From Escherichia phage phi92: 64,000 nt of DNA. Made by a program: the position numbers and the translations under genes. Below the pieces are notes generated by a model that saw only the letters and a program-made list of their open reading frames with translations, made no database searches and had not been told where the DNA came from. Below are positions 13,596-48,985 of the stretch, one piece after another (within the stretch, counting starts at the first letter, position 1; each line of letters starts with the position of its first letter). The stretch is taken from the sequence record NC_023693.1. The stretch is one strand, 5' to 3'.

Positions 13596-15755
13596 ATGAA
13601 ACAGGCTATTTTTACTGTAACTCGAAATACGAGAGTAAATGCCAGTTCATTCAGCTATAAGACCGTCGATGGAACGGCGGTCGCTGGTAGAGATTATGTA
13701 GCTAAACAGGGAACAGTAACGTTCCCTTCTGATGCAGATTCTGCTACTGTGGTGGTTGATGTATATGAACGTCCGGCAAACTCTTTAGATCTTTATTTTA
13801 CTCTTGAGATTACTAGCATAAGTCAAAATAACATGATGATCAATGAAGAAATTCGTTGTGTTATTACGACTAATCAATCGAATACAACCCCGCTAACTTG
13901 GCCTGTTGTGAAGTCTAGAATGTTTGATCCTAAGTTTTGGACAATAGATTCTCAATCAACAGAAAGTTGTTCTATTATCTCTAATGGTGATTCTTTCACA
14001 GCAAGAATGGTTAATAGGACAGTGGCTGGTCTTGCTGGGATTATTTGGTCAACTTACGATAAATATGATCACAAAGGATTAGGCTACCAAGAACATTCTG
14101 ACTTAAGTAAAGAGAAACTTTGGTTTAAAATGGAACTTAGTCAAGGTGTTCCTGGATTAAAAGAAGAAAAATTAATACCATCCTTAACAGTGACACTGAA
14201 GGATGAAACAGTTCATTATGTATCTCTAAACTTTTATGCAGAAGAAGTTTCAGAAGATGGTAAGACAGCAACAATCAAACTAGATTTCTCAAATTTAAAA
14301 TCTGGGCCAGAAAATGATATTGTTGTTGACACTACACAGATAGATAATATGTTCTTCTCCTTGATCTCCGCAAGGTATCAAGAAATTGAAGATGTTATAC
14401 CTGTAGACAATATGGATCTTTCCTTTAAGTTTACCATACTAGAGCCTGATACTGGTTACAGTATGATGAATATGGGTAATTTAAATGTTCCGGCGCACAC
14501 CATAAGAATGTGTACATCTTATGATGATATGTATAACCTAACCCCGGAGCGAGTTATTTCTAATACCTATAGATTAGGTTATAGGGATATGATTAACCAT
14601 TATAATGGTATGTCACACTATTATCAATTCAGTTGGGATGCTGGCTCTAATAAATGGGCTTTGAACAGAACAGAATATTTAAACCCAGCAACAGAAGCCT
14701 GGTTTGATAATTTCCACGCTAATGCAAAAGCTATGGGCTACACAGTAATGAACTCCTTAAGTTTTGAACTTATGAGTACAGTGTGTCCTGTAGAATGGGT
14801 ACAACATACTTGGAATGATGATCTGGCTGCTACAGGTTATGAGCCACCAAGTTATGTTTTATCTCCTTCAATTGATGAAGGGATGAATTATTTACAAGGT
14901 GTAATAAATAAGATAGCTTCTATATCCGCTGCTAATGATCTTCCGGTTATTATTCAGGTTGGTGAACCGTGGTGGTGGTATAACACAGCTACCAATCTAC
15001 CGTGTATTTATGATTATACAACCAAAGTTGCATTTAATAATGAAACTGGATTATATGCACAAGATGTTGGTACAGTTAAAAATTATAAAACTGGTACACC
15101 ATATGATGAATATTATGCATTCCTATCTAAAACATTAGGACTGCGTGTTGCTAAATTTGCAACAGATACCAGATTAGCATACCCTGGAGCGAAAGTTACA
15201 TTGTTACCATTTGTACCATCCATCTTAGGTAATGGTATGATGGAGTTTGTTAACTTCCCTAAAGATTATTATATTCCAGAAAACTTTGACTTTTATTGTT
15301 CAGAATGTTATGATTGGTTGTTGGAAGGTAAGATGGAAAGATCTTTTGACGCTATCACAATACCTAATGAGCAACTAGGTTTTAGTTATGATAAGATACA
15401 TTATCTTGCAGGGTTTGTTCCAGATGCAACTCTAGCACCATTATATGGCTTTGATCCTGAATCAAACTATAGGACATATTTGTGGAAAATGATTATAGGT
15501 AATATTGTATTGAATGACCAGAAGTTTGTTGGTTTATATCAATACATATGGGCTTATCCACAAATAATGCATGATTCAATAACTGTTCTTAATTCAAAAT
15601 CCCAAGTTTTTTATATGGGTAATGTGCCTTTGAATTGCTATTTGCAAGATATCACTCTTAAACAGGTAAATGTTACGATTGCTACTATAAGCGGAATTAC
15701 ACTAGCCACTAAATCTGGAGAAGATTTAGTAACAACACAAAAATTTTATATATAG
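13596..15755 (+). CDS. large tail-associated protein
   Basis: 719 aa ORF with RBS; no recognised motif. Confidence 0.4.
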   Translation: MKQAIFTVTRNTRVNASSFSYKTVDGTAVAGRDYVAKQGTVTFPSDADSATVVVDVYERPANSLDLYFTLEITSISQNNMMINEEIRCVITTNQSNTTPLTWPVVKSRMFDPKFWTIDSQSTESCSIISNGDSFTARMVNRTVAGLAGIIWSTYDKYDHKGLGYQEHSDLSKEKLWFKMELSQGVPGLKEEKLIPSLTVTLKDETVHYVSLNFYAEEVSEDGKTATIKLDFSNLKSGPENDIVVDTTQIDNMFFSLISARYQEIEDVIPVDNMDLSFKFTILEPDTGYSMMNMGNLNVPAHTIRMCTSYDDMYNLTPERVISNTYRLGYRDMINHYNGMSHYYQFSWDAGSNKWALNRTEYLNPATEAWFDNFHANAKAMGYTVMNSLSFELMSTVCPVEWVQHTWNDDLAATGYEPPSYVLSPSIDEGMNYLQGVINKIASISAANDLPVIIQVGEPWWWYNTATNLPCIYDYTTKVAFNNETGLYAQDVGTVKNYKTGTPYDEYYAFLSKTLGLRVAKFATDTRLAYPGAKVTLLPFVPSILGNGMMEFVNFPKDYYIPENFDFYCSECYDWLLEGKMERSFDAITIPNEQLGFSYDKIHYLAGFVPDATLAPLYGFDPESNYRTYLWKMIIGNIVLNDQKFVGLYQYIWAYPQIMHDSITVLNSKSQVFYMGNVPLNCYLQDITLKQVNVTIATISGITLATKSGEDLVTTQKFYI

Positions 15756-15763
15756 GAGTAAAA

Positions 15764-18520
15764 ATGTCAACTACAATTACTAATTTACCCGAAACATCAA
15801 AAGTTAATAGTTCTGATTACCTGGTTTTAGACCAGCCTGATAAGACTGTTAAAAGCACAGTTTCCAACTTTCTTGCTGACACTGGGGTGGTTTTAGCCAC
15901 CCAGCTAAAAGATACTTCTGGTGCTACCAAGTATCCAGAACTTCAAATGTCGCGCTGGAGAGATGAAGGTGATCCTAGAGGATGGGGAGCAGTAGGTGAC
16001 GGAGCAACAGACGATACTAATGCTATAACACAGCTTCTTGCTGCTATGCCTGATGGATGGATTATTGATGGGCGTAATCTCACTTTCAAGGTTACAACAC
16101 TACCAGATATAAGCAAGTTTAAAAACGCTGCTTTTGTTTACGAGCGTATTGTTGGACAACCCCTTACTTATGTATCTGAAGGTTTCTTCGATGGAAATCT
16201 GACAAAGATTACGGATACACCATTTTACAATGCTTGGACGCAAGATAAGACGTTTGTTTATGATAATGTTATATATGCACCATTTATGGCTGGCGAACGT
16301 CATGGTGTACAAAACCTCCATGTAGCGTGGGTTAAATCAGGAGATGATGGACAAACTTGGTCTATGCCAGAATGGTTAACTCCAATTCATCCTGATTATA
16401 CAGCAGACAAAGTTAACTATCATTGTATGAGTATGGGTGTATGTGGTAATCGCCTATATGCAGTCATCGAAACCCGTTACTTATCTAACATGCGATTGAA
16501 GAAAGCAGAACTTTGGTCACGTCCAATGCCTTATTATAGAAGGCCAACTGGAGGTATAACAATTAGTTCTGGGTCTACTACGGCGACGATTGTTTTAAAA
16601 AAGCATGGTCTTAAAGTTGGAGATGCTGTTAACTTTTCCAATTCGGGTGCAACTGGTGTATCTGGAAATATGACTGTTGCATCTGTAATTAACAAGGATA
16701 CATTTACGGTTACATTAGCAAGGGCTGCCACATCTAATATAGATAATACAGGAACTACTTGGCATTTTGGAACACGTTTCTGGGATAGCCCTTGGGAAAT
16801 TACAGAATTACCAGATGTTGCCTATTCTACTAATGCAGACTTATGTGTTACAGAAACCCATAGTTTTACAGTTATAGATGATGATAATTACACTTTTGCT
16901 GTGGGTTATCACAATGGTGATATTTCCCCAAGAAGATTAGGTATTTTGTACTTCAATAATGCTTACTCTGACCCAAGTTCTTTTACTCGTAGAACAATTA
17001 GTCAAGAATATGCTGACAATGCAGCAGAACCCTGCATTAAATATTACGATGGAATTTTATATTTAACTACCAGGGGTACTTCAACTTCTGCTGCTGGTTC
17101 TACATTAGCAATGAGTGCTGACCTTGGAGAAAACTGGAATTACTTAAGATTTCCTAACAACGTTCATCATACAAACCTACCATTTGCAAAAGTTGGTGAT
17201 TATCTTTATATCTTTGGTACAGAACGTTCATTTGGAGAGTGGGAAGGGCAAGAACTAGATAATAGATATAAAGGTACGTATCCTCGAACGTTTATGTGCA
17301 AGATTAATGTATCTTCATGGCCTGTATCTTTATCCAATGTTCAATGGTTTAATATCACTGATCAGATATATCAAGGGCATATTGTTAATTCTGCATGTGG
17401 CGTTGGTTCGGTATGTGTTAAAGATGGCTGGTTATATTATATCTTTGGAGGTGAAGATTTCTTATCTCCTTGGTCTATCGGAGATAATAGTAAAAAATTA
17501 TGGTACAAGCATGATGGTCATCCAGCCGATTTATATAGCTATAGACTAAAGATTACCGAACATGATTTTGTATCACGTGACTTCAAATATGGAGCTACGC
17601 CAAACCGTACATTGCCTGTATCTATGGGTACAGATGGGGTAAGGCATGTCTCAGCCCCTGTAACTTTTGATAATGATGTACAGATGTACTCTTTAACAGT
17701 TACTGGTCTTGAGCATGATGGGACACAACAATCTGCCGTTAGAGTAAAATTAGATGGTGATTATGGGGTTATTGCAAAAAATATCCCAATAAAAAATCCT
17801 TCTGAACAGCGACTAATCTTATGTGGAGGAGAAACTCCTTACACTACTGATGGATCGTTATTACAATTGTATGGTTCAAACCATACGTATCCAAACAGAG
17901 CAATTTTATATGCCCCAGGAGGAGCATATACACAAAATAATTTCATGCCGTACTTAGATGGACAAGTTTCATTAGGTGGTGCATCTAATAGATGGTCAGA
18001 AGTGTATGCATCTACAGGAACCATTAATACTTCAGACGGAACATTAAAAACTAAACCTACAGAGATTGAAGATATTTTACTGAAAGCATGGGAAGATATT
18101 CATGTAATCTCTTACCAATGGCTTAGTGCTGTCGCGGAGAAAGGAGATTCTGCGCGTATTCATTTTGGTGTTATCGCTCAAGATGTAAGAGATATTCTGA
18201 TTAATTATGGTTTAATGGATGAAAATAGTACTGATTGTAAGTATGCTTTTCTATGTTATGATGAATACCCTGCTATGTATGATAGTGTTGTTACGGGACA
18301 AAAAGAAATCACTTTACTTGACGATGAAGGAAATAATGTAATTGATGAAGAAGGTAATCCAGTAACAATTGTAGAAGATGTTGTAGAAACTATCGAAGTA
18401 ATTCCAGCAGGATCGCGATGGGGTATCCGCGCTGACCAAATGTTTTTTATTGAGATGGCTTATCAACGTAAAAAGTTAAAAGCTCTTGAAGAAAGACTTG
18501 CAACCCTAGAAAGTAAATAA
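15764..18520 (+). CDS. tailspike/fibre with pectate-lyase-like motif, Asp-box repeats and C-terminal intramolecular chaperone (peptidase S74-like)
   Basis: WGAVGDGATDDTNAITQLL motif; Asp-boxes SGDDGQTWS and SADLGENWN; C-terminal region with NTSDGTLKTK and a coiled-coil tail, as in self-cleaving chaperone domains of endosialidase/T5 pb1-type fibres. Confidence 0.55.
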   Translation: MSTTITNLPETSKVNSSDYLVLDQPDKTVKSTVSNFLADTGVVLATQLKDTSGATKYPELQMSRWRDEGDPRGWGAVGDGATDDTNAITQLLAAMPDGWIIDGRNLTFKVTTLPDISKFKNAAFVYERIVGQPLTYVSEGFFDGNLTKITDTPFYNAWTQDKTFVYDNVIYAPFMAGERHGVQNLHVAWVKSGDDGQTWSMPEWLTPIHPDYTADKVNYHCMSMGVCGNRLYAVIETRYLSNMRLKKAELWSRPMPYYRRPTGGITISSGSTTATIVLKKHGLKVGDAVNFSNSGATGVSGNMTVASVINKDTFTVTLARAATSNIDNTGTTWHFGTRFWDSPWEITELPDVAYSTNADLCVTETHSFTVIDDDNYTFAVGYHNGDISPRRLGILYFNNAYSDPSSFTRRTISQEYADNAAEPCIKYYDGILYLTTRGTSTSAAGSTLAMSADLGENWNYLRFPNNVHHTNLPFAKVGDYLYIFGTERSFGEWEGQELDNRYKGTYPRTFMCKINVSSWPVSLSNVQWFNITDQIYQGHIVNSACGVGSVCVKDGWLYYIFGGEDFLSPWSIGDNSKKLWYKHDGHPADLYSYRLKITEHDFVSRDFKYGATPNRTLPVSMGTDGVRHVSAPVTFDNDVQMYSLTVTGLEHDGTQQSAVRVKLDGDYGVIAKNIPIKNPSEQRLILCGGETPYTTDGSLLQLYGSNHTYPNRAILYAPGGAYTQNNFMPYLDGQVSLGGASNRWSEVYASTGTINTSDGTLKTKPTEIEDILLKAWEDIHVISYQWLSAVAEKGDSARIHFGVIAQDVRDILINYGLMDENSTDCKYAFLCYDEYPAMYDSVVTGQKEITLLDDEGNNVIDEEGNPVTIVEDVVETIEVIPAGSRWGIRADQMFFIEMAYQRKKLKALEERLATLESK

Positions 18521-18548
18521 TACCGCTTCGGCGGTATTTCAATCTTTA
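18521..18548 (+). terminator. intrinsic terminator
   Basis: TACCGC-ttcg-GCGGTA followed by TTTCAATCTTTA. Confidence 0.5.
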
Positions 18549-18568
18549 TATCTCGCTTAGAGGTACTC

Positions 18569-18835
18569 ATGGTTAAAGAGAAAAATGGTTTTAAAAAATT
18601 TATTCGAGGTATGTTTTGTACATATCCTGATAATAAAGTCAGTTCTACTAAAGTTTGGAATGCTATTGGTATGATTGTTATGTCCAGTATGTTTATTTAT
18701 TTGGGAATTGATAAAGAAATTCCTGAATGGATGGGCTGGGCTTTTGTTTTTATGATCACACCATCCAGATTAATGAAGAATTTAATAGATTTACGTTGGG
18801 GCAGATCACCTGCCCCTGATAAGGAGGATAACTAA
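18569..18835 (+). CDS. small membrane protein (two predicted TM helices)
   Basis: 88 aa with hydrophobic stretches VWNAIGMIVMSSMFIYLGI and WMGWAFVFMITPS. Confidence 0.4.
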   Translation: MVKEKNGFKKFIRGMFCTYPDNKVSSTKVWNAIGMIVMSSMFIYLGIDKEIPEWMGWAFVFMITPSRLMKNLIDLRWGRSPAPDKEDN

Positions 18836-25318: not shown

Positions 25319-27280
25319 GTGATTTTAACACGTCCAAATAGTGCCATTGCAGACATGGTAGAGTCTCGCTATAGAAAGCGTAGAAGTTTTGCAAGTGGTT
25401 TTACCTTAAGAGATGCTCGTGAAGCATTGCTCTTTGAAACTGACGGTAACTACTATCAGTGGAAAGGTTCTCTACCTAAAGTTGTACCTGCTAACTCTAC
25501 TCCTACATCTACTGGAGGGATTTCAGATACAGCTTGGAAAAATGTGGGTAATGCAGATGACATTGCTCAAATAGAATCAGAATTAGATGCTATTGAAGCT
25601 GAAATTGAAGATCTTAGAGAATCCATCCCAGAAGCTGGTAAATCAGCTTACCAAATTGCCGTAGACAATGGTTTCCAAGGTACTGAGACACAGTGGTTGG
25701 CTTCTTTAAAAGGTGATCCAGGTGCTCCATTAAAGCTACTAGGGACGCTATCTAATACCAACCAATTACCTACAACTGGAAACAATGCAGGGGATGCATG
25801 GATTGTAGGCGAGAATATGTATGCTTGGGATGGTACTGCTTGGAGAAAAGTAAACTCACAGGGGCCAGAAGGTAAATCTGCTTATGAAGTATGGCTTGCA
25901 GCAGGAAACGAAGGTACAGAACTAGATTATCTTGCCGCAATTAAAGGTGATAAAGGGGAGCCTGGCCCAGAGGGGCCACAAGGTGTGCCAGGTAATAATG
26001 CTAATGGTTTTGATTACCAAGGCGCAGCTAATTCCGTTTCAGATCTTCCTTCTGCATCTCCTGGAAACACATCTCAAGCATGGAGTATTGGTACATATCT
26101 ATACGTGTCAAACGGTGTAGAATGGATCAATATGGGCGCTATAGTGGGGCCAAAAGGAGATAAAGGCGACAAAGGAGATAAGGGTAACACTGGTGATTCA
26201 GCTTATCAAGTCTGGTTAAATGCTGGTAACGTTGGTACTATTGACGAATATATTGCCTCTCTGAAAGGAGAAAAAGGTGATAAGGGAGACAAGGGTGATC
26301 AAGGTGCACAGGGTATACAAGGCTTGACGGGGCCAACTGGTGCAGGGTTGACCATTATTGACATTCTGACTAGCACTTCTGAACTACCACAAACTGGAGA
26401 AGATGGTGATGGTTATCTGATCAATAATGAACTTTGGGTCTGGTTGCAAGGAGCCACAGAGTGGACAAATGTTGGTCGTTTAGCTGGTACTCCAATCACT
26501 GCAAAAGGATACGTTGCGTCTGCAAGTGCACTTCCTCCTACAGCCAATTACGGTGATGCTTATCTGACGGAAGATACAGGTCATCTTTACATTTACACCT
26601 ATGATGAACAAACTCAAACTGCTGAATATGTAGATATGGGTAGTTTGAAAGGTGATAAGGGTGAAAAAGGTGACGCTGGTACTAACGGTACAGACGGTGC
26701 AACTTGGATTGTTAAAACAACAGATCCAATCTCTAGTGATGGTAAACAAGGTGATTATGCCTTTAATATCTCCACTGGCGAGGTGTTCTTAAAAACATCT
26801 GCAACTATCTGGACTTCTCAAGGTACACTACCTAGTATCACAGATGCACCTAGTGATGGTAAGACTTATGCTCGTAAAGATGGAGCATGGGAAGAACTCA
26901 CTAATTCTGTAGATGGTCAAGATATAGTTCCAACAAAAGTAACAACTAATTTTATAGAGGTTACAGCATATACTAACAATTCTGTTACAGGGGACTGGAC
27001 ACCTCCAGGAACACATAACATGAATGTGTTGAATCTTACTGGTAACTCTACTATAAAAGCATGGCCTGGTGTCGAAGATAGCACAAAACCTAAACCATTC
27101 TCTGCAATAGTTTATCTTATCCAAGATGCCACTGGAGGTCGTACTGTTACTTTAGATCCATCTTACAAAGTAATTGGTTCCAGTGATATTAATACAGATC
27201 CTAACGGAGTAACAATACTACAACTAACATATTGTGGTGTTGGCGATTACGTGGATGCTATTGTTGCTAAACGCACATAA
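25319..27280 (+). CDS. tail fibre protein with collagen-like Gly-X-Y repeats
   Basis: GTG start with RBS; Gly-X-Y runs GPKGDKGDKGDKGNTGD, GEKGDKGDKGDQGAQGIQGLTGPTGAG, GEPGPEGPQGVPG and KGDKGEKGDAGTNGTDG. Confidence 0.6.
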   Translation: MILTRPNSAIADMVESRYRKRRSFASGFTLRDAREALLFETDGNYYQWKGSLPKVVPANSTPTSTGGISDTAWKNVGNADDIAQIESELDAIEAEIEDLRESIPEAGKSAYQIAVDNGFQGTETQWLASLKGDPGAPLKLLGTLSNTNQLPTTGNNAGDAWIVGENMYAWDGTAWRKVNSQGPEGKSAYEVWLAAGNEGTELDYLAAIKGDKGEPGPEGPQGVPGNNANGFDYQGAANSVSDLPSASPGNTSQAWSIGTYLYVSNGVEWINMGAIVGPKGDKGDKGDKGNTGDSAYQVWLNAGNVGTIDEYIASLKGEKGDKGDKGDQGAQGIQGLTGPTGAGLTIIDILTSTSELPQTGEDGDGYLINNELWVWLQGATEWTNVGRLAGTPITAKGYVASASALPPTANYGDAYLTEDTGHLYIYTYDEQTQTAEYVDMGSLKGDKGEKGDAGTNGTDGATWIVKTTDPISSDGKQGDYAFNISTGEVFLKTSATIWTSQGTLPSITDAPSDGKTYARKDGAWEELTNSVDGQDIVPTKVTTNFIEVTAYTNNSVTGDWTPPGTHNMNVLNLTGNSTIKAWPGVEDSTKPKPFSAIVYLIQDATGGRTVTLDPSYKVIGSSDINTDPNGVTILQLTYCGVGDYVDAIVAKRT

Positions 27281-27283
27281 TCA

Positions 27284-27308
27284 AAGCCCCTTCGGGGGCT
27301 TATTATTT
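27284..27308 (+). terminator. intrinsic terminator
   Basis: AAGCCCC-ttcg-GGGGCTT followed by ATTATTT. Confidence 0.6.
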
Positions 27309-27319
27309 AAGGAGATTAA

Positions 27320-27928
27320 ATGTATCCTATTCCTTTATTTATGTCAACAACATCAGCTTCAGTAGTAACAGCTACATCTATAACTACTTCCTCTATTGGT
27401 ATTGCAATAGTTGGTGGTAAAAAACAACTGACATACACAGTTACACCGGAAGATGGTGCATTATTTGATATAGCTTTTTCATCTTCAGATAATACCAAAA
27501 TGGTTATAGATAATAGTGGTATGATGGAGTTTGTTGCCGAAGGTGGTTTTGATGCAATAATGACAGCTAAAAATAATTTAGGTGCTGTCTTAACTGATCA
27601 ATCTGGTGGCTATGCTTCAGAATTAAGTGTGTACACTGAAAGTCTATCGGCTATGGATGTAGGCACTACTCAACAGTTGGTTGCTACAATCAGTCCAGAA
27701 GGTGCTAAAGACCTTCCAGATATGGTAATTACATACACCACAACAGATCCAGAAGTAGCTACTGTAAGCCCTACAGGGTTAATAACTGCTCTTAAAGATG
27801 GCGGTTGCCGTATAGGTTGTACTGCAACGTATCAAGGAACAGTTGTGGCCTCTGATAGGTCTTATTTAGGTGTTAATGCTATTCCTGTTATTTCTAATGT
27901 AACAGCCGTATCTTTAATAACTCAATAG
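27320..27928 (+). CDS. bacterial Ig-like (Big_2-type) domain protein
   Basis: Pattern GTTQQLVATISPEGA...VATVSPTGLITALKDGGCRIGCTATYQG resembles Big_2 domains; 202 aa. Confidence 0.45.
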   Translation: MYPIPLFMSTTSASVVTATSITTSSIGIAIVGGKKQLTYTVTPEDGALFDIAFSSSDNTKMVIDNSGMMEFVAEGGFDAIMTAKNNLGAVLTDQSGGYASELSVYTESLSAMDVGTTQQLVATISPEGAKDLPDMVITYTTTDPEVATVSPTGLITALKDGGCRIGCTATYQGTVVASDRSYLGVNAIPVISNVTAVSLITQ

Positions 27929-28094
27929 CTACAGATGATTCGTTCATTAAAGAAGTTATTGTCTTTGCTGGACAAGATAACGTAAATGCACACTTTACAG
28001 AACTATCTGGTGCAAATAAAGCAGCAATGAGTAGCACAACAGCCCGTAATGCATATGCTACGCAACGTGGTTTAGCAAATGCTGAAGTTCTTCC

Positions 28095-28982
28095 GTGTTA
28101 AATACAGCTTCTGGATCATCAGCAGCAGATAAATATGCTGACGATAAAGCTGGAACAGGTACACCAGATAACTACTGGTATGATCTGGATAACACAGCAG
28201 ATGGGCCATGCTTAACTAACTTTATCACTAAAGTCACACCTTATGCAAGTAAGGTTAAAGCAATTATTTGGGGACAAGGTGAAAATGATGCTGTATCAGC
28301 ATCTTCGACTGTTGCAGGTAGGTACAGTAACACTACACGTTACCATGATGCTACGATAGCTATCTTTGATAAGATGCGTACAATAGTTCCTGCTTCTCAA
28401 GCAAAAATTGTTTGGCAGATCCTAGGACGTTCTTATTTATATGGTGTAGAAGTTAATGGTGTGGATTGGCAGAAGTACAGAAATGTACAAAGAACCATCT
28501 CTACAGCACGTGATGATGTTATCATTGGTTCTTGGGTAGATGGTGCTGAACGTTACAGTGGTTATGTTTATGAAGAAGGTATTGATGGTCGTATCCATTA
28601 TATTTCTTCTGTATACCAAACAGCAGCTACAAAACTTGCTAAATCAGCAGCAGACGGTACAGATTTAACATCAACGTCACCTGTTTGGGTTGATATGTCT
28701 GTTCCAACAGGAGGAGCCGCTGTAAGACAAGCTAACCAAGATGTAATTATCTCTTGGGAACCAGCAGGATATACTAAACATTACTTCCGAAATGTAAACG
28801 TCCTCACAGCAGCAATTCTTACAGAACAAACCCTGGATACTAACACTTACACATTTACTTATGCAGATCAGGTTGAACAATATGGATTTGCAGCAGGTAC
28901 AACAGTGTTTGATGTTGCACACTATGATGCTGATAATGACGTGTTATCACCTCTTGTCAGATTTACAGTCAATGTTACATAA
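28095..28982 (+). CDS. hypothetical protein, possible SGNH-like carbohydrate esterase
   Basis: GTG start; motifs WGQGENDA (GxND-like) and DVAHYD (DxxH-like); an upstream open frame in another reading frame contains VIVFAGQDN. Confidence 0.3.
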   Translation: MLNTASGSSAADKYADDKAGTGTPDNYWYDLDNTADGPCLTNFITKVTPYASKVKAIIWGQGENDAVSASSTVAGRYSNTTRYHDATIAIFDKMRTIVPASQAKIVWQILGRSYLYGVEVNGVDWQKYRNVQRTISTARDDVIIGSWVDGAERYSGYVYEEGIDGRIHYISSVYQTAATKLAKSAADGTDLTSTSPVWVDMSVPTGGAAVRQANQDVIISWEPAGYTKHYFRNVNVLTAAILTEQTLDTNTYTFTYADQVEQYGFAAGTTVFDVAHYDADNDVLSPLVRFTVNVT

Positions 28983-28986
28983 ACAA

Positions 28987-29015
28987 AAAGGAGCCATTAG
29001 GCTCCTTTTCTTTTA
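28987..29015. terminator. bidirectional terminator between the convergent modules
   Basis: AAAGGAGCC-atta-GGCTCCTTT flanked by T-runs on both strands; lies between the + strand stop at 28982 and the - strand stop at 29018. Confidence 0.6.
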
Positions 29016-32334: not shown

Positions 32335-35300
32335 TCAGTGACAAGTTGACCATGAACTACCAACATCGTAACCAGCAGTGAGAGGTACATTAAGATTGTA
32401 ATACTCACCAGCTTTATTAACAGCGATAGATGCTAATTCTCCAGCACGACTGTAGGCTGTAAACCAACCACCTTTCGGAGATTCATGTACGTTAGCCCAA
32501 ATCTTGCCAGTACGTTTCTCTTCCTCTTCTTTCCAGGCATTAACTTTATCCAAACATTCTTTATCAATTTTCTTTTGTTCCTCTGGATCATCAACTTGAG
32601 TCCAACCTAAAGATTCTTTAGAGAACCATTTAAAATGCACCAGATCACGAGTTACTTCAAGCTGTGCTTCATCGTGATATGCAATCATTTGTTGAACGAA
32701 TGACTTATTTTTCCAGTCATCAACAAAAAAGTCAACAGCTAATCCTTCTTCTTCGATAAGATCGTCGTAGATAACCATTGCTCTTTTTGCACAAATAACA
32801 CCACCACTCTGGAACAGAGAGTTAAGTATTGCGTGTGCAGATCGTGTAGGTACTTTCCTACCATCAATACCAAGAATGTATTTCTTACCTGTTTTAACCC
32901 AAAAATCATGCAGACGTTCTTTAAGAAGCGCAAGAGGTTTTGCAGCTTCCCAGAAAGCATCGTATACAAGCTGTCCTGTATACATATCACTACCTATAGT
33001 TTTTGCTACTTTTGCAGCTTGAGCACCATAAGTAATACCATACTTAACAGATTTAGCAGGGCTTCGTTCAAACTTACGACCAATAGTGTCAGAAATACGT
33101 CGAGCCATCATTGTATGAACATCATTAGGTTTTTCCAATAATAGAGCATTACAATATTCGTGTGGTTCCTGCTCGTACCGCCAACAATTCCCTGTAATCG
33201 TGATGCAGTCTTTCTGACGCATAACCCATGTACCGAGTTCTGTTTGTGGACACCAAACATCTTCTACACCCCATTCTTCAATAGTCAGACTTTGAACAGG
33301 GATGTGAGAGCGGTTAGCCAACGTTGCCACTTTTACTTTCTGGTCTTTCGTATTGAAGGCTACAGAAATATTACCCCCATGAACCAGGTATGAGGCAGTT
33401 AAGGCTGCTTCAAAAAGTTCTCCTGGGTTCTGCGCCCAGCGCCAAACAGGTTTTTGTTTATGTTTGTGCCAGTAACCATCCGCAATCAAAAAACCTTCCA
33501 AGAAAGCCACACGCTCGGCATGAGACATATTAACTACACGTTCTACCCACGGAACATCCCATTTACCTTGTTGAACAGAAGTTAAACTATTTACTTGATC
33601 TTGTTCCATGTTAAATGGAGCATTACAAATAATGTTATCTCCTGTGCAAAGCTCGGCAGTTGTTCTGACTTTAGGCACATAAGTATTCCCTGTACTACGA
33701 GTATTAACATACCAACGGTGATCTGCTGTTGCACGATAAGTATGGGATTTTCCTTTAATCTCAAACGTCTTACTATTTTTATAGAAGACCTTACCTTTTA
33801 CTTTAGTCCATTCTTTAAGTCCTGTTTCTGGGTTATATCCTAAGATTTCATCCCCTTCTTGTAGATCGTGATAACCAACCCAACCTTTACGGGTTAGTGC
33901 TTGTGCATCCATAGGTACACAGTAGTGTGATTCTATTTTTGCCTCAAGAGAATCAAAGTCATAACCAATTTGGAAGTATTTTGGAACTTCTACACCAAAT
34001 AAGTTACGCATTTCATATCCGTACAGAGATGTTACACGTGGGATATTTGCTACTAACCTATGTTTCATACGAGACGTAGCTGCATCACACGTTGCAGCAG
34101 GAGTTGGTATACGACCATCAGCCCTTACTGCTGCCAGATAACCTTTATCGTAATCCTCTTCATCTTCTTCCCAATCAGCACCACCTCCTAGAATAGAGTT
34201 CCTACGGTGTTTATACGTAAGATACTGCACAATCTGCGTAGCATAAGGAAACTTTTCACCTAGTGCTTCCAAGTTAGGACAAATATCTTTCTCTTGCCCT
34301 TTTGTAAAGGAAGGGTTAGTAAGCACTTTAACACCACGACCTTTAGCTTTAGCAATACGATCTCTTAGTTTCCATTCCAAAGTTTCTGGTGTGCACTCCA
34401 GATGATCACATCTGTCCTGGCAGAAGTTAGATGCCAATGTTTGATCAACATAGTCACGAATAGCTTTCTCCATTTGTGCTTCATCTTTCTTAATCTTAGT
34501 GCCAGATTTAAGAGTGATATCTTTATCTTTATATTCAGATGGACTCCAACCTAAACCAACTAACCAGTTTTTAATATGTGTCGTGTCGTCTAAAGTAGCA
34601 GGTACTGTAGGATCACAAATAGGTTCTTCTGCTGGAATAGGTAGTTTAAACTCTTTACCTAAAGCAAATAACCACCAACCATCTTCTTTTTGTACAAGTT
34701 CACCAGAATGTTTCTCTGCAAACTTTATCATGTTACTTGAAGGTTCACCATTCTTTTTAAACTGTAGTTTAGGTGGAATGAATGATTTCAAATAACCTTT
34801 AGTAGCAGGTTTAGGAGGTAGCACAGGTTCTGCCTCTAAACGACATGCTTCCATTCGAGCATCCAGATCACGAATATTATCTTCTGCTTGTTTCATATTG
34901 AAAGCAAAGCCACGGTGCTCTTGACGTGTAATAATATCCGCTACACGTTGTTCTAAGTTAAATGGTTCAGACCACTTATTATAATCACCCCACTCTTCCA
35001 TCAAATAACGGAACACTGCGGTGTTAGCTTTGTTATCGTAAATACAGTAATACAGCATATCTGCTGCAAATGTTTTAAATCTTTCAGTTTCAGGGATATT
35101 TTTTCTAAAATCAATTTTAACATCCCCTCCAGCTTTCTTAGATAACTCTGCCAGACTATGACCACCGAAGCGATCAGGGTTTAGTGTCTTACTTAAGATC
35201 ATAGTATCACAAATTTCAATGTTACTATTACCCCAAGTATTGTACTTAATACTGTAGTTGAGTTTAAAAAATAATTTAATTGCCAGTAAGTCAAAGTTAA

Positions 35301-35649
35301 TGATGTTATGTCCAACTACTTTGGTAATTTTATAGTTTGAATTACCTTTAAATTTACCTGTTCCATTTACAAAATCAGGAAAATCTTTAAGAGGGAAATG
35401 GGTATATTCTAAATGCTCATATTCCTCCAGTCGGTATTCATACTTTCCGTCAGTCTCAACATACGGACGACCATCGAAAAGATATTTATCACCATCATGG
35501 AAAGCAATAATCTCTCCAGTATCATGACTTTCGCACACAATACAGTGCATTGCAAAACTATCTTTTAAACGATATGGACTTGCCAAGTAATCTACACTTT
35601 CGTCATTAAGCAAGTTGTTACTTTCAATGTCGAAAGTAAAAGCTCCCAT
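32335..35649 (-). CDS. DNA polymerase, family A (T7-like) with 3'-5' exonuclease domain; intein-containing
   Basis: Exo I motif FDIES near the N-terminus; motif A-like GYDFDSLEAKIESHY; motif B-like RKFERSPAKSVKYGITYGAQAAK; NDVHT; a ~245 aa insertion between motif A and the following conserved segment. Confidence 0.75.
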   Translation of the reverse strand: MGAFTFDIESNNLLNDESVDYLASPYRLKDSFAMHCIVCESHDTGEIIAFHDGDKYLFDGRPYVETDGKYEYRLEEYEHLEYTHFPLKDFPDFVNGTGKFKGNSNYKITKVVGHNIINFDLLAIKLFFKLNYSIKYNTWGNSNIEICDTMILSKTLNPDRFGGHSLAELSKKAGGDVKIDFRKNIPETERFKTFAADMLYYCIYDNKANTAVFRYLMEEWGDYNKWSEPFNLEQRVADIITRQEHRGFAFNMKQAEDNIRDLDARMEACRLEAEPVLPPKPATKGYLKSFIPPKLQFKKNGEPSSNMIKFAEKHSGELVQKEDGWWLFALGKEFKLPIPAEEPICDPTVPATLDDTTHIKNWLVGLGWSPSEYKDKDITLKSGTKIKKDEAQMEKAIRDYVDQTLASNFCQDRCDHLECTPETLEWKLRDRIAKAKGRGVKVLTNPSFTKGQEKDICPNLEALGEKFPYATQIVQYLTYKHRRNSILGGGADWEEDEEDYDKGYLAAVRADGRIPTPAATCDAATSRMKHRLVANIPRVTSLYGYEMRNLFGVEVPKYFQIGYDFDSLEAKIESHYCVPMDAQALTRKGWVGYHDLQEGDEILGYNPETGLKEWTKVKGKVFYKNSKTFEIKGKSHTYRATADHRWYVNTRSTGNTYVPKVRTTAELCTGDNIICNAPFNMEQDQVNSLTSVQQGKWDVPWVERVVNMSHAERVAFLEGFLIADGYWHKHKQKPVWRWAQNPGELFEAALTASYLVHGGNISVAFNTKDQKVKVATLANRSHIPVQSLTIEEWGVEDVWCPQTELGTWVMRQKDCITITGNCWRYEQEPHEYCNALLLEKPNDVHTMMARRISDTIGRKFERSPAKSVKYGITYGAQAAKVAKTIGSDMYTGQLVYDAFWEAAKPLALLKERLHDFWVKTGKKYILGIDGRKVPTRSAHAILNSLFQSGGVICAKRAMVIYDDLIEEEGLAVDFFVDDWKNKSFVQQMIAYHDEAQLEVTRDLVHFKWFSKESLGWTQVDDPEEQKKIDKECLDKVNAWKEEEEKRTGKIWANVHESPKGGWFTAYSRAGELASIAVNKAGEYYNLNVPLTAGYDVGSSWSTCH
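33187..33921 (-). mobile_element. intein (aa 577-821 of the polymerase ORF) with one LAGLIDADG-like motif
   Basis: Starts with Cys (CVPMD...), TxxH block (TADHRW), LAGLIDADG-like FLEGFLIADGY, ends ...ITGN with +1 Cys (CWRY); removing it restores a contiguous motif A segment. Confidence 0.6.
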
Positions 35650-47263: not shown

Positions 47264-48133
47264 TTAAACAAACATATCTAAATAATTTGTAGTAATAAAT
47301 GCTCCATCTGCTTCCAGATTAACATAACCAGTAGCATTAGTGGTTAAGAAATCCAGATCGAAGGACTCTTTAACACCCCGTACCTCAACACGAGAGATAT
47401 CGAATACAGGTAGTGTAACAGCCTCTTCGTGCAATACCGTACCTTTGTAGGTTGCCTTAATGATAAACTTGATATTACCTGTTCCAGCATCATATAAAAC
47501 ACTTTCAAACCCTTTGAGAGTATATTTATCACCAGAGGTGAAGTGCAAAGTTGCTTTGTTTACAGTACGGTTCTTACGAGGAGTTCCTTTCACACGTTTA
47601 TGATCACTACGTCTTTTGCATTTAGGAATGAATACAAACGATACACTCTCAAGAAAGGTATCAACATCAAGGATTTTAATATCCTCTGTTGCAGCAAATT
47701 TTGAAGTAGTTGCATCAAAATGCTTTTCCCTGCGATCATACATAAAGATATCAAACCGATCTTCTAAATCAAACCGATCTTCTAAATCAAACAAATTATG
47801 CAGTTTAATTTCAGAATGCTTGCACATTGCAGCAACCTTAAACTCTTCAAAACGTGGGTGTTCTACAAGTTCTTCAAGTTTTACACCAAAGACAGTATAT
47901 TGTTTCGAAGTTTTTTCTGGTGTTGGCATTACAGAAGCATAATCACCGATTGCGCTCTTAAAGCAAAATTGTTCTTGACCTGTATTTTTACCAACGAATT
48001 TACAGTATTCGTCATCGTGCATACTTTCCTGGGTAGTACCAACAAACTCAAAACCATCTTTATTCTTCTCAAGGATTTCTTGATTAAAGATCCAACCTTC
48101 CAGGCGATATACTTTACCAACTTCTAGTTTCAT
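47264..48133 (-). CDS. hypothetical protein (contains an 18 bp tandem duplication)
   Basis: 289 aa; internal DLEDRFDLEDRF encoded by the tandem repeat at 47751-47786. Confidence 0.4.
   Translation of the reverse strand: MKLEVGKVYRLEGWIFNQEILEKNKDGFEFVGTTQESMHDDEYCKFVGKNTGQEQFCFKSAIGDYASVMPTPEKTSKQYTVFGVKLEELVEHPRFEEFKVAAMCKHSEIKLHNLFDLEDRFDLEDRFDIFMYDRREKHFDATTSKFAATEDIKILDVDTFLESVSFVFIPKCKRRSDHKRVKGTPRKNRTVNKATLHFTSGDKYTLKGFESVLYDAGTGNIKFIIKATYKGTVLHEEAVTLPVFDISRVEVRGVKESFDLDFLTTNATGYVNLEADGAFITTNYLDMFV
47751..47786. repeat. perfect 18 bp tandem duplication (TCAAACCGATCTTCTAAA x2, plus a partial third copy)
   Basis: Positions 47751-47768 and 47769-47786 are identical; in frame within the CDS. 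Confidence 0.8.
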
Positions 48134-48967: not shown

Positions 48968-48985
48968 AAGCCCCCGAAGGGGCTT
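48968..48985 (-). terminator. GC hairpin, possible terminator downstream of terC
   Basis: AAGCCCC-cgaa-GGGGCTT, weak T-tract. Confidence 0.4.

Follow-up and report, generated by a model that had tools for sequence, protein, structure and literature searches.

Positions 27320-28982 of the 64,000-nucleotide (nt) stretch of the Escherichia phage phi92 genome analysed here (NC_023693.1, hereafter the window) very probably constitute one recently inactivated ancestral tail-protein gene, annotated as two, gp152 and gp153. In its complete form the gene encodes a protein of 628 amino acids (aa), composed of two Ig-like (Big_2) domains, an FN3-like domain, an esterase-like domain of the SGNH/SASA fold and a second FN3-like domain. 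This is a known kind of tail module, and no new mechanism is implied. Two changes set phi92 apart from its relatives, a 226-nt deletion and the duplication of a GT dinucleotide, and each of them shifts the reading frame.

The intact gene in relatives of phi92

Protein matching identified the open reading frames (ORFs) at 25319-27280, 27320-27928 and 28095-28982 as exact translations of Phi92_gp151, gp152 and gp153, the latter two both entered as "tail protein" in GenBank and RefSeq. No mention of gp152 or gp153 was found in the literature searched, which did not cover the 2012 phi92 genome and proteome paper. The layout described in a first-pass annotation of the window was confirmed by reading the sequence: the end of gp152 at 27928 and the GTG of the next listed ORF at 28095 are 166 nt apart, and another frame (positions with remainder 1 modulo 3) is open across this gap from 27898 to 28098, preceded by TAA at 27895-97 and followed by TAA at 28099-101. 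Its translation reads ...KEVIVFAGQDNVNAHF...AEVLPC, with the Asp codon GAT at 27976-78. In the relative arall, a stretch of DNA 100% identical to it lies in frame within the corresponding gene, so the out-of-frame coding in phi92 is more than chance.

A megablast search with positions 27300-29000 as query matched 54 phage records, 52 of them over the full query and nearly all of them E. coli Justusliebigvirus. All 52 full-length matches carry one continuous gene and are 224 nt longer than phi92 (1,925 versus 1,701 nt; 825 versus 601 nt for the inner query), and none has the arrangement of phi92, in line with the earlier suspicion of a frame-disrupted gene. A single coding sequence (CDS) of 1,887 nt and 628 aa is annotated in arall, muut, VEcB, ECGD1 and cardinal, while inny, KMB37 and PaulScherrer have a 939-aa allele instead, with an extra C-terminal domain; the phi92 remnant is of the short, 628-aa type. 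The names given to the gene in relatives range from "hypothetical protein" and "tail protein" to "tail carbohydrate esterase" and "lateral tail fiber protein", with one "non-contractile tail sheath". Ratios of nonsynonymous to synonymous differences per site (pN/pS) of 0.10-0.27 for the whole gene (26 pairwise comparisons of intact relatives) and of 0.06-0.23 for the esterase-like domain indicate purifying selection.

The 939-aa allele (CDS from 621 onward; proteins P0002, P0005 and P0015) is present in about half of the relatives, and its extra C-terminal domain of ~310 aa, located after the second FN3-like domain, matched no Pfam family. Four matching records are labelled "Campylobacter phage" (A150, C3, A110a and A145; MG065639, MG065656, MG065689 and MG065645; genomes of ~146.4 kb). 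As they are 97.5-98.4% identical at this locus to E. coli Justusliebigvirus, the Campylobacter host label looks doubtful.

Two lesions separate gp152 from gp153

Alignment with arall mapped the lesions to the base and gave exactly two length differences in the gene, the 226-nt deletion and the GT insertion (Table 1). In arall, a 7-nt direct repeat (CAGCCGT) stands on either side of the deleted segment, the signature of a slipped-strand or microhomology deletion. The segment covers ancestral residues ~198-272, an FN3-like beta-sandwich. As 226 is not a multiple of three, the frame shifts and gp152 ends as 197 native residues followed by SLITQ and a stop. The Ig-like ORF, which had been taken for a separate preceding gene, is therefore the N-terminus of the same broken gene; residues 1-197 of gp152 and of the arall protein (arall_18) are the same save one substitution. 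At a distance of 185 nt past the deletion, the tandem duplication of GT (CCGTTAAA to CCGTGTTAAA) causes a second frameshift, within the interval 28085-28100 that had been flagged for a possible indel. The GTG "start" of gp153 is a product of this insertion and has no Shine-Dalgarno sequence ahead of it. The frame order 2, 1, 0 along the gene means that the two lesions do not compensate each other. Deletions between 7-nt repeats and dinucleotide duplications are both classic products of replication slippage.

The hairpin that closes gp151 is the 5' limit of the transcription unit, and AAGGAG at 27309..27314, also kept in arall and in Salmonella phage UAB_1, is the sole good ribosome-binding site of the locus. 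As the deletion between the CAGCCGT copies takes out the first FN3-like domain and shifts the frame, translation from this site is predicted to end after a 202-aa Ig-like stub. With the GT duplication the frame shifts again. The stranded middle piece (27910..28094) codes for the first strand and the helices of the SGNH-like domain, with the block I residues G-Q-D-N at 27970-27981; it would be left without the start codon of its own gene, its only start codon gives an ORF of 23 codons, and the program-made ORF list holds no ORF of 40 aa or more in its frame. The rest of the domain would be reachable solely from the insertion-made GTG, without a Shine-Dalgarno sequence. The esterase-like part is thus most likely not made, or would be unable to fold if made: with no start codon, no ribosome-binding site and the N-terminal third of the fold lost, the FN3/esterase-like/FN3 part is probably not produced as a functional protein in phi92. 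The Ig-like stub is probably still built into the tail, given that the same module of ~190 aa is joined elsewhere to another C-terminus and is kept in other truncations.

Table 1. Coordinates of features at the gp152/gp153 locus of phi92 (window positions) and of disrupted alleles in other sequences (positions in the respective locus)
Feature	Position	Strand	Description
Terminator-like hairpin	27284..27301	+	7-pair stem with 5 G-C pairs and a T-rich tail; closes the tail-fibre gene gp151
Shine-Dalgarno AAGGAG	27309..27314	+	5 nt before the ATG at 27320 (sequence reading)
gp152, 202 aa	27320..27928	+	197 native residues (two Big_2 Ig-like domains), then SLITQ out of frame and TAG
226-nt deletion junction	27903..27909	+	single CAGCCGT copy left
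Stranded middle piece, 185 nt	27910..28094	+	frame 1; ancestral residues 273-334
GT duplication (GTGT)	28095..28098	+	single GT in relatives
gp153, 295 aa as annotated	28095..28982	+	from 28098 equals ancestral residues 335-628; phrog_32204 positions 358-655 of 655
gp153, esterase-like part	to ~28700	+	C-terminal ~200 residues of the SGNH-like domain
gp153, block III WGQGENDA (within IIWGQGENDA)	28269-28292	+	motif columns of the family alignment
gp153, block V GRIHY	His codon 28596-98	+	motif columns of the family alignment
gp153, C-terminal FN3-like domain	~28713-28979	+	holds DVAHYD
Bidirectional terminator hairpin	28986..29009	both	10-11 pair stem; toward a convergent minus-strand gene
Disrupted allele, UAB_1 (L003)	3621-4398		
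Disrupted allele, 896-nt deletion (L011-L014)	3001-3991		
Disrupted allele, nonsense (L015)	1723-3609		

The most serious alternative is that both lesions come from faults in the deposited sequence, for instance a shotgun clone with a deletion or a mistake in assembly or base calling, and that the phage itself has an intact 628-aa gene. Several observations weigh against a true inactivation. Both lesions occur in the single phi92 record alone, and the exact 202-aa and 295-aa products were each found on one contig. Exact-match scans did not find the deletion junction in IMG/VR or in the Joint Genome Institute (JGI) metagenomes, a result that is little informative because the intact sequence occurs only once in IMG/VR, nor the GT-insertion sequence in IMG/VR, where the intact version was likewise found once only. 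Short-repeat deletions also arise during cloning in E. coli. Finally, the rest of the gene holds one substitution unique to phi92 among the eight relatives compared (A550V), which implies a recent break, if it is real, and fits a sequencing or cloning artefact equally well. On the other hand, the phi92 record does not seem prone to indel errors, since only three small indels distinguish it from arall over ~48.7 kb of alignment at 98-99% identity. The GT insertion is the sole frame-breaking one among them; the others are an in-frame 18-nt tandem duplication (ATCAAACCGATCTTCTAA) at 47750, inside a minus-strand gene, and a 1-nt change in a C-run at 48971, intergenic in arall. Moreover, the duplication of a GT dinucleotide is not an error of the homopolymer type. 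Two separate artefacts would have had to fall by chance within 190 nt of each other, while a gene that is dead already can be expected to take a further hit. Loss of this gene is also tolerated in other phages, as shown by independent natural deletions and by a nonsense allele (see below). Thus, we regard an artefact as distinctly unlikely.

A far less probable reading holds that gp152 and gp153 are two real, separate genes, one for an Ig-like tail protein and the other for an independently translated, N-terminally shortened esterase-like protein. Their separate entries in the databases and the complete, confidently folded Ig-like module retained in gp152 would fit this, and split domains are conceivable, as an SGNH-like domain of phage N4 may be divided between gp65 and gp64. 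However, the GTG of gp153 exists only through the GT insertion and lacks a Shine-Dalgarno sequence, the encoded protein has neither strand 1 nor block I nor the first helices, the frame of the missing piece offers a start for the 23-codon ORF only, and the arrangement occurs in none of the relatives. Some phages add Ig-like domains to structural proteins by frameshifting, and two successive programmed -1 frameshifts that fuse gp152, the middle piece and gp153 would suit the formally -1 direction of both frame changes and the open overlaps at 27898-27925 and 28086-28098, but this is hardly credible, as neither overlap contains a canonical X_XXY_YYZ heptamer (the absence of an evident slippery site had already been pointed out), the frame changes occur in none of the 52 relatives, where there is one frame, and the first of them coincides with a deletion by which an entire domain is lost.

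Fold and domain architecture

The N-terminal ~190 residues of the intact protein match Pfam Big_2 (E-value 7e-15) and are all-beta in a full-length AlphaFold2 (AF2) model, with a predicted local distance difference test (pLDDT) score of 85-91; beta-strands run across residues 190-274 (pLDDT 72-83). This model, built on a five-sequence alignment, is poor past residue ~280 (pLDDT 58) and served for the N-terminal domain boundaries only. For the esterase-like domain, a domain-only search of an index of 5.8 billion proteins returned two fragments and was replaced by a full-length query and an exhaustive search of representatives, in which a five-sequence domain profile run with HMMER against 1.84 billion representative proteins yielded 113 clusters at E <= 1e-3. 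The domain was then modelled with AF2 on 22 aligned full-length domains, with the repaired phi92 sequence as the first. The repaired domain is predicted with high confidence (pLDDT 94.5, predicted template modelling score, pTM, 0.92) as a three-layer alpha/beta/alpha SGNH fold with alternating strands and helices.

A Foldseek comparison with the PDB placed the N4 tail complex at the top (9YF5 and 9LC0; template modelling score 0.75-0.77, E 2e-12). The matches that followed N4 gp65 at E <= 1e-3 (CE2, GDSL, PatB, the acetylxylan esterase 1ZMB, 2APJ and a sialate O-acetylesterase) are all SGNH hydrolases. Likewise, the family profile matched N4 gp65 in the PDB with E 3.9e-72, and 2APJ and 1ZMB weakly. 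Pfam SASA (PF03629) matches 15 of the 22 family domains (best E 5.6e-13), while the phi92-type sequence scores 16-17 bits (E 0.005), under the gathering cut-off of 24.8. The likeness to SGNH/SASA esterases that had been proposed from short motifs therefore holds at the level of both profile and fold, with the phi92-type protein as a divergent member of the SGNH clan.

Catalytic motifs and a probable binding role

Among the 78 other family domains that cover block I, 62 have Ser at the nucleophile position (GQSN). Phi92 and its near relatives have GQDN, and GGDN is found in diverged orthologues of 645-647 aa that are 41-44% identical and the sole diverged full-length ones found. The Asp, noted earlier as a replacement of the nucleophilic Ser, is invariant at this position among the phi92-like proteins aligned. 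By comparison of the aligned sequences, the change from Ser to Asp is shown to be the derived state, and the Asp-for-Ser site would be ancestral to the phi92 clade and older than the break. The description of a "degenerate" esterase is thus apt as far as the lost active-site Ser is concerned, but this loss belongs to the clade as a whole and is not due to the break.

The WGQGENDA motif had been correctly read as an esterase block and corresponds to block III, which is conserved in the family (Gly in 117, Glu in 91 and Asp in 102 of 127 aligned family domains) and reads WSLGEQDA in the diverged group. In contrast, DVAHYD, proposed as the DxxH block, had to be rejected as block V, since it sits in the C-terminal FN3-like beta-sandwich, where it has no connection with the active site. 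Block V is instead GRIHY; its His is present in the phi92 type and replaced by Gln in two of four diverged orthologues, and no Asp three residues before this His is conserved in the family alignment.

The domain would therefore probably represent an esterase fold kept for glycan or receptor binding rather than for serine catalysis. This reading draws together the Asp in place of Ser, the purifying selection on the domain in intact relatives and the precedent of N4 gp65, whose second domain lacks both Ser and His. Against it, the notion of a catalytically dead domain is based on sequence and predicted fold, and an Asp-based or other mechanism is possible.

Relation to N4 and to other tail esterases

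The closest known system is gp65 of N4 (PDB 9LC0, 9YF4, 9YF5 and 9YFT), the major non-contractile sheath subunit and receptor-binding protein, which contains an esterase-like plus FN3-like unit homologous to the phi92-group protein (E 6.9e-25 for the single phi92-type sequence against the PDB). Domain 2 of gp65 (719-987) is SGNH-shaped but non-catalytic, as it also has no Ser (VGINQFGGGH) and carries Tyr for the block V His. The substitutions differ between the two proteins: the phi92 type has Asp and keeps the His, and its gene is broken in phi92. The settings differ as well. N4 gp65 has 1,382 aa in ten domains, pairs with gp64, wraps the tail tube of a podovirus and is receptor-binding (PMC13434306), whereas the phi92-group protein has 628 aa and a double Ig-like module at its N-terminus, and comes from a myovirus that bears side fibres. 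The GenBank label "non-contractile tail sheath" in one relative shows that annotation software has caught the homology to gp65. A side observation concerns the first SGNH-like domain of N4: gp65 domain 1 (9lc0_I, 431-603; FAGESQ, WGQGDQDA) covers positions 16-183 of the family profile only, and the N-terminus of gp64 (9lc0_M, 15-77; ...GQIHFN...) covers positions 193-257, block V included. In the N4 sheath, gp65 and gp64 may thus each contribute a part of this domain.

With SASA/SGNH esterases (PF03629; 1ZMB, 2APJ and 8F9O) the phi92-type domain shares the alpha/beta/alpha fold and the order of motifs, i.e. G-Q-x-N following strand 1, then W-x-Q-G-E-x-D, and towards the end a His ahead of the last helix. 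Unlike them, it has Asp for Ser, a sub-threshold Pfam score and no conserved DxxH Asp. Tail-fibre SGNH esterases of the G7C gp63.1 type keep the catalytic Ser and His. They likewise carry an SGNH domain on a tail appendage with beta-sandwich domains before and after it, but the phi92-clade domain lacks their Ser-His catalytic set. Esterases of this type, e.g. G7C gp63.1 and Schitoviridae tailspikes, deacetylate surface glycans (literature cited in PMC8594841 and PMC13434306).

Phi92 has a second protein with pieces similar to the N4 sheath. The intact gp142 (13596-15752, + strand) is homologous over residues 358-608 to N4 gp64 (residues 109-367, E 2.4e-27) and also matches gp65 residues 343-416, GMSHY included; these are other pieces than those related to gp152/gp153. 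Phi92-like phages need wecB and nfrB on K-12, like N4 (PMC8594841, PMC8669472), and a 2026 preprint (10.64898/2026.04.02.716166) proposes NGR-glycan recognition in the genus for the gp142-type fibre, not for gp152/gp153. The preprint names a short gp65 segment only, and not the homology of gp65 ~430-1070 to the 628-aa protein. We had considered the lost module as an NGR/NfrA-recognition device, given its homology to gp65 and the NGR dependence of relatives (PMC8669472), but dropped this idea because the preprint places NGR specificity on the intact gp142-type fibre.

Independent truncations at a module boundary

Three lineages besides phi92 have lost the same distal part independently. In Salmonella phage UAB_1, a 1,109-nt deletion has left a 190-aa "Ig-like protein" and a 73-aa ORF; an 896-nt deletion in at least 19 assembled contigs has left ORFs of 193 and 144 aa; and one assembly labelled E. 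coli has a stop codon in place of Gly353. Counting that of phi92, the three deletions have their left ends at gene positions 566-590 (codons 189-197), i.e. at the Ig/FN3 junction; all are out of frame, and the shifted frame stops within 0-5 codons each time. In P0081, a tail protein that has another C-terminal part, the homology stops at residue ~190, at the same junction. By our own post-hoc estimate, three left ends in one 25-nt window would occur about once per thousand trials if they were evenly spread.

We read this clustering as a sign that clean truncation between modules is tolerated, or selected, with the Ig-like stub kept and the distal part dispensable in some settings. An unlikely, more far-reaching explanation would be that the Asp-for-Ser SGNH domain is a specialised receptor-recognition module or an Asp-dependent esterase, and that its repeated clean removal is an adaptive host-range switch and not drift. 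Phages on capsulated or smooth hosts would then shed a useless or harmful module, and the Ig-like stub would be retained because the tail needs it.

Consequences for phi92 and its genus

As well as being the type member of its genus, phi92 is the reference phage when it comes to multivalent, "Swiss-army-knife" adsorption. If the gene is inactivated as proposed, phi92 would be without a distal tail module that its relatives show, which calls for caution when structures or host ranges of phi92 are extrapolated to the genus, or the reverse, as 52 relatives carry the module. The annotation could be corrected to describe gp152 and gp153 as halves of one broken gene, which would also explain why a separate function of gp153 will not be found. 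Beyond phi92, the serine-less SGNH domain would add to N4 gp65 a second case, with another residue in place of the Ser, in which a phage tail reuses an esterase fold, probably for binding. Tail fibres of phi92 are still without assignment in the newest cryo-electron microscopy work (PMC13450770).

Other variation in the window

Neighbouring genes in the window are in keeping with its identity as phi92; among their products are a colanic-acid-degrading tailspike, a collagen-like tail fibre, a DNA methyltransferase and an intein-containing DNA polymerase. A segment of ~2.9 kb at 15651-18607 (+ strand) is lacking in arall and contains most of the 918-aa tailspike ORF at 15764-18520 (phrog_1171, "tail spike protein"), which is presumably the phi92 endosialidase; the segment illustrates how members of the genus exchange tailspike cassettes. 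The DNA polymerase ORF at 32335-35649 (- strand, 1,104 aa) carries an insertion of ~733 nt at ~33186-33919 that is not in arall, and relatives annotate the polymerase as an intein-containing precursor.

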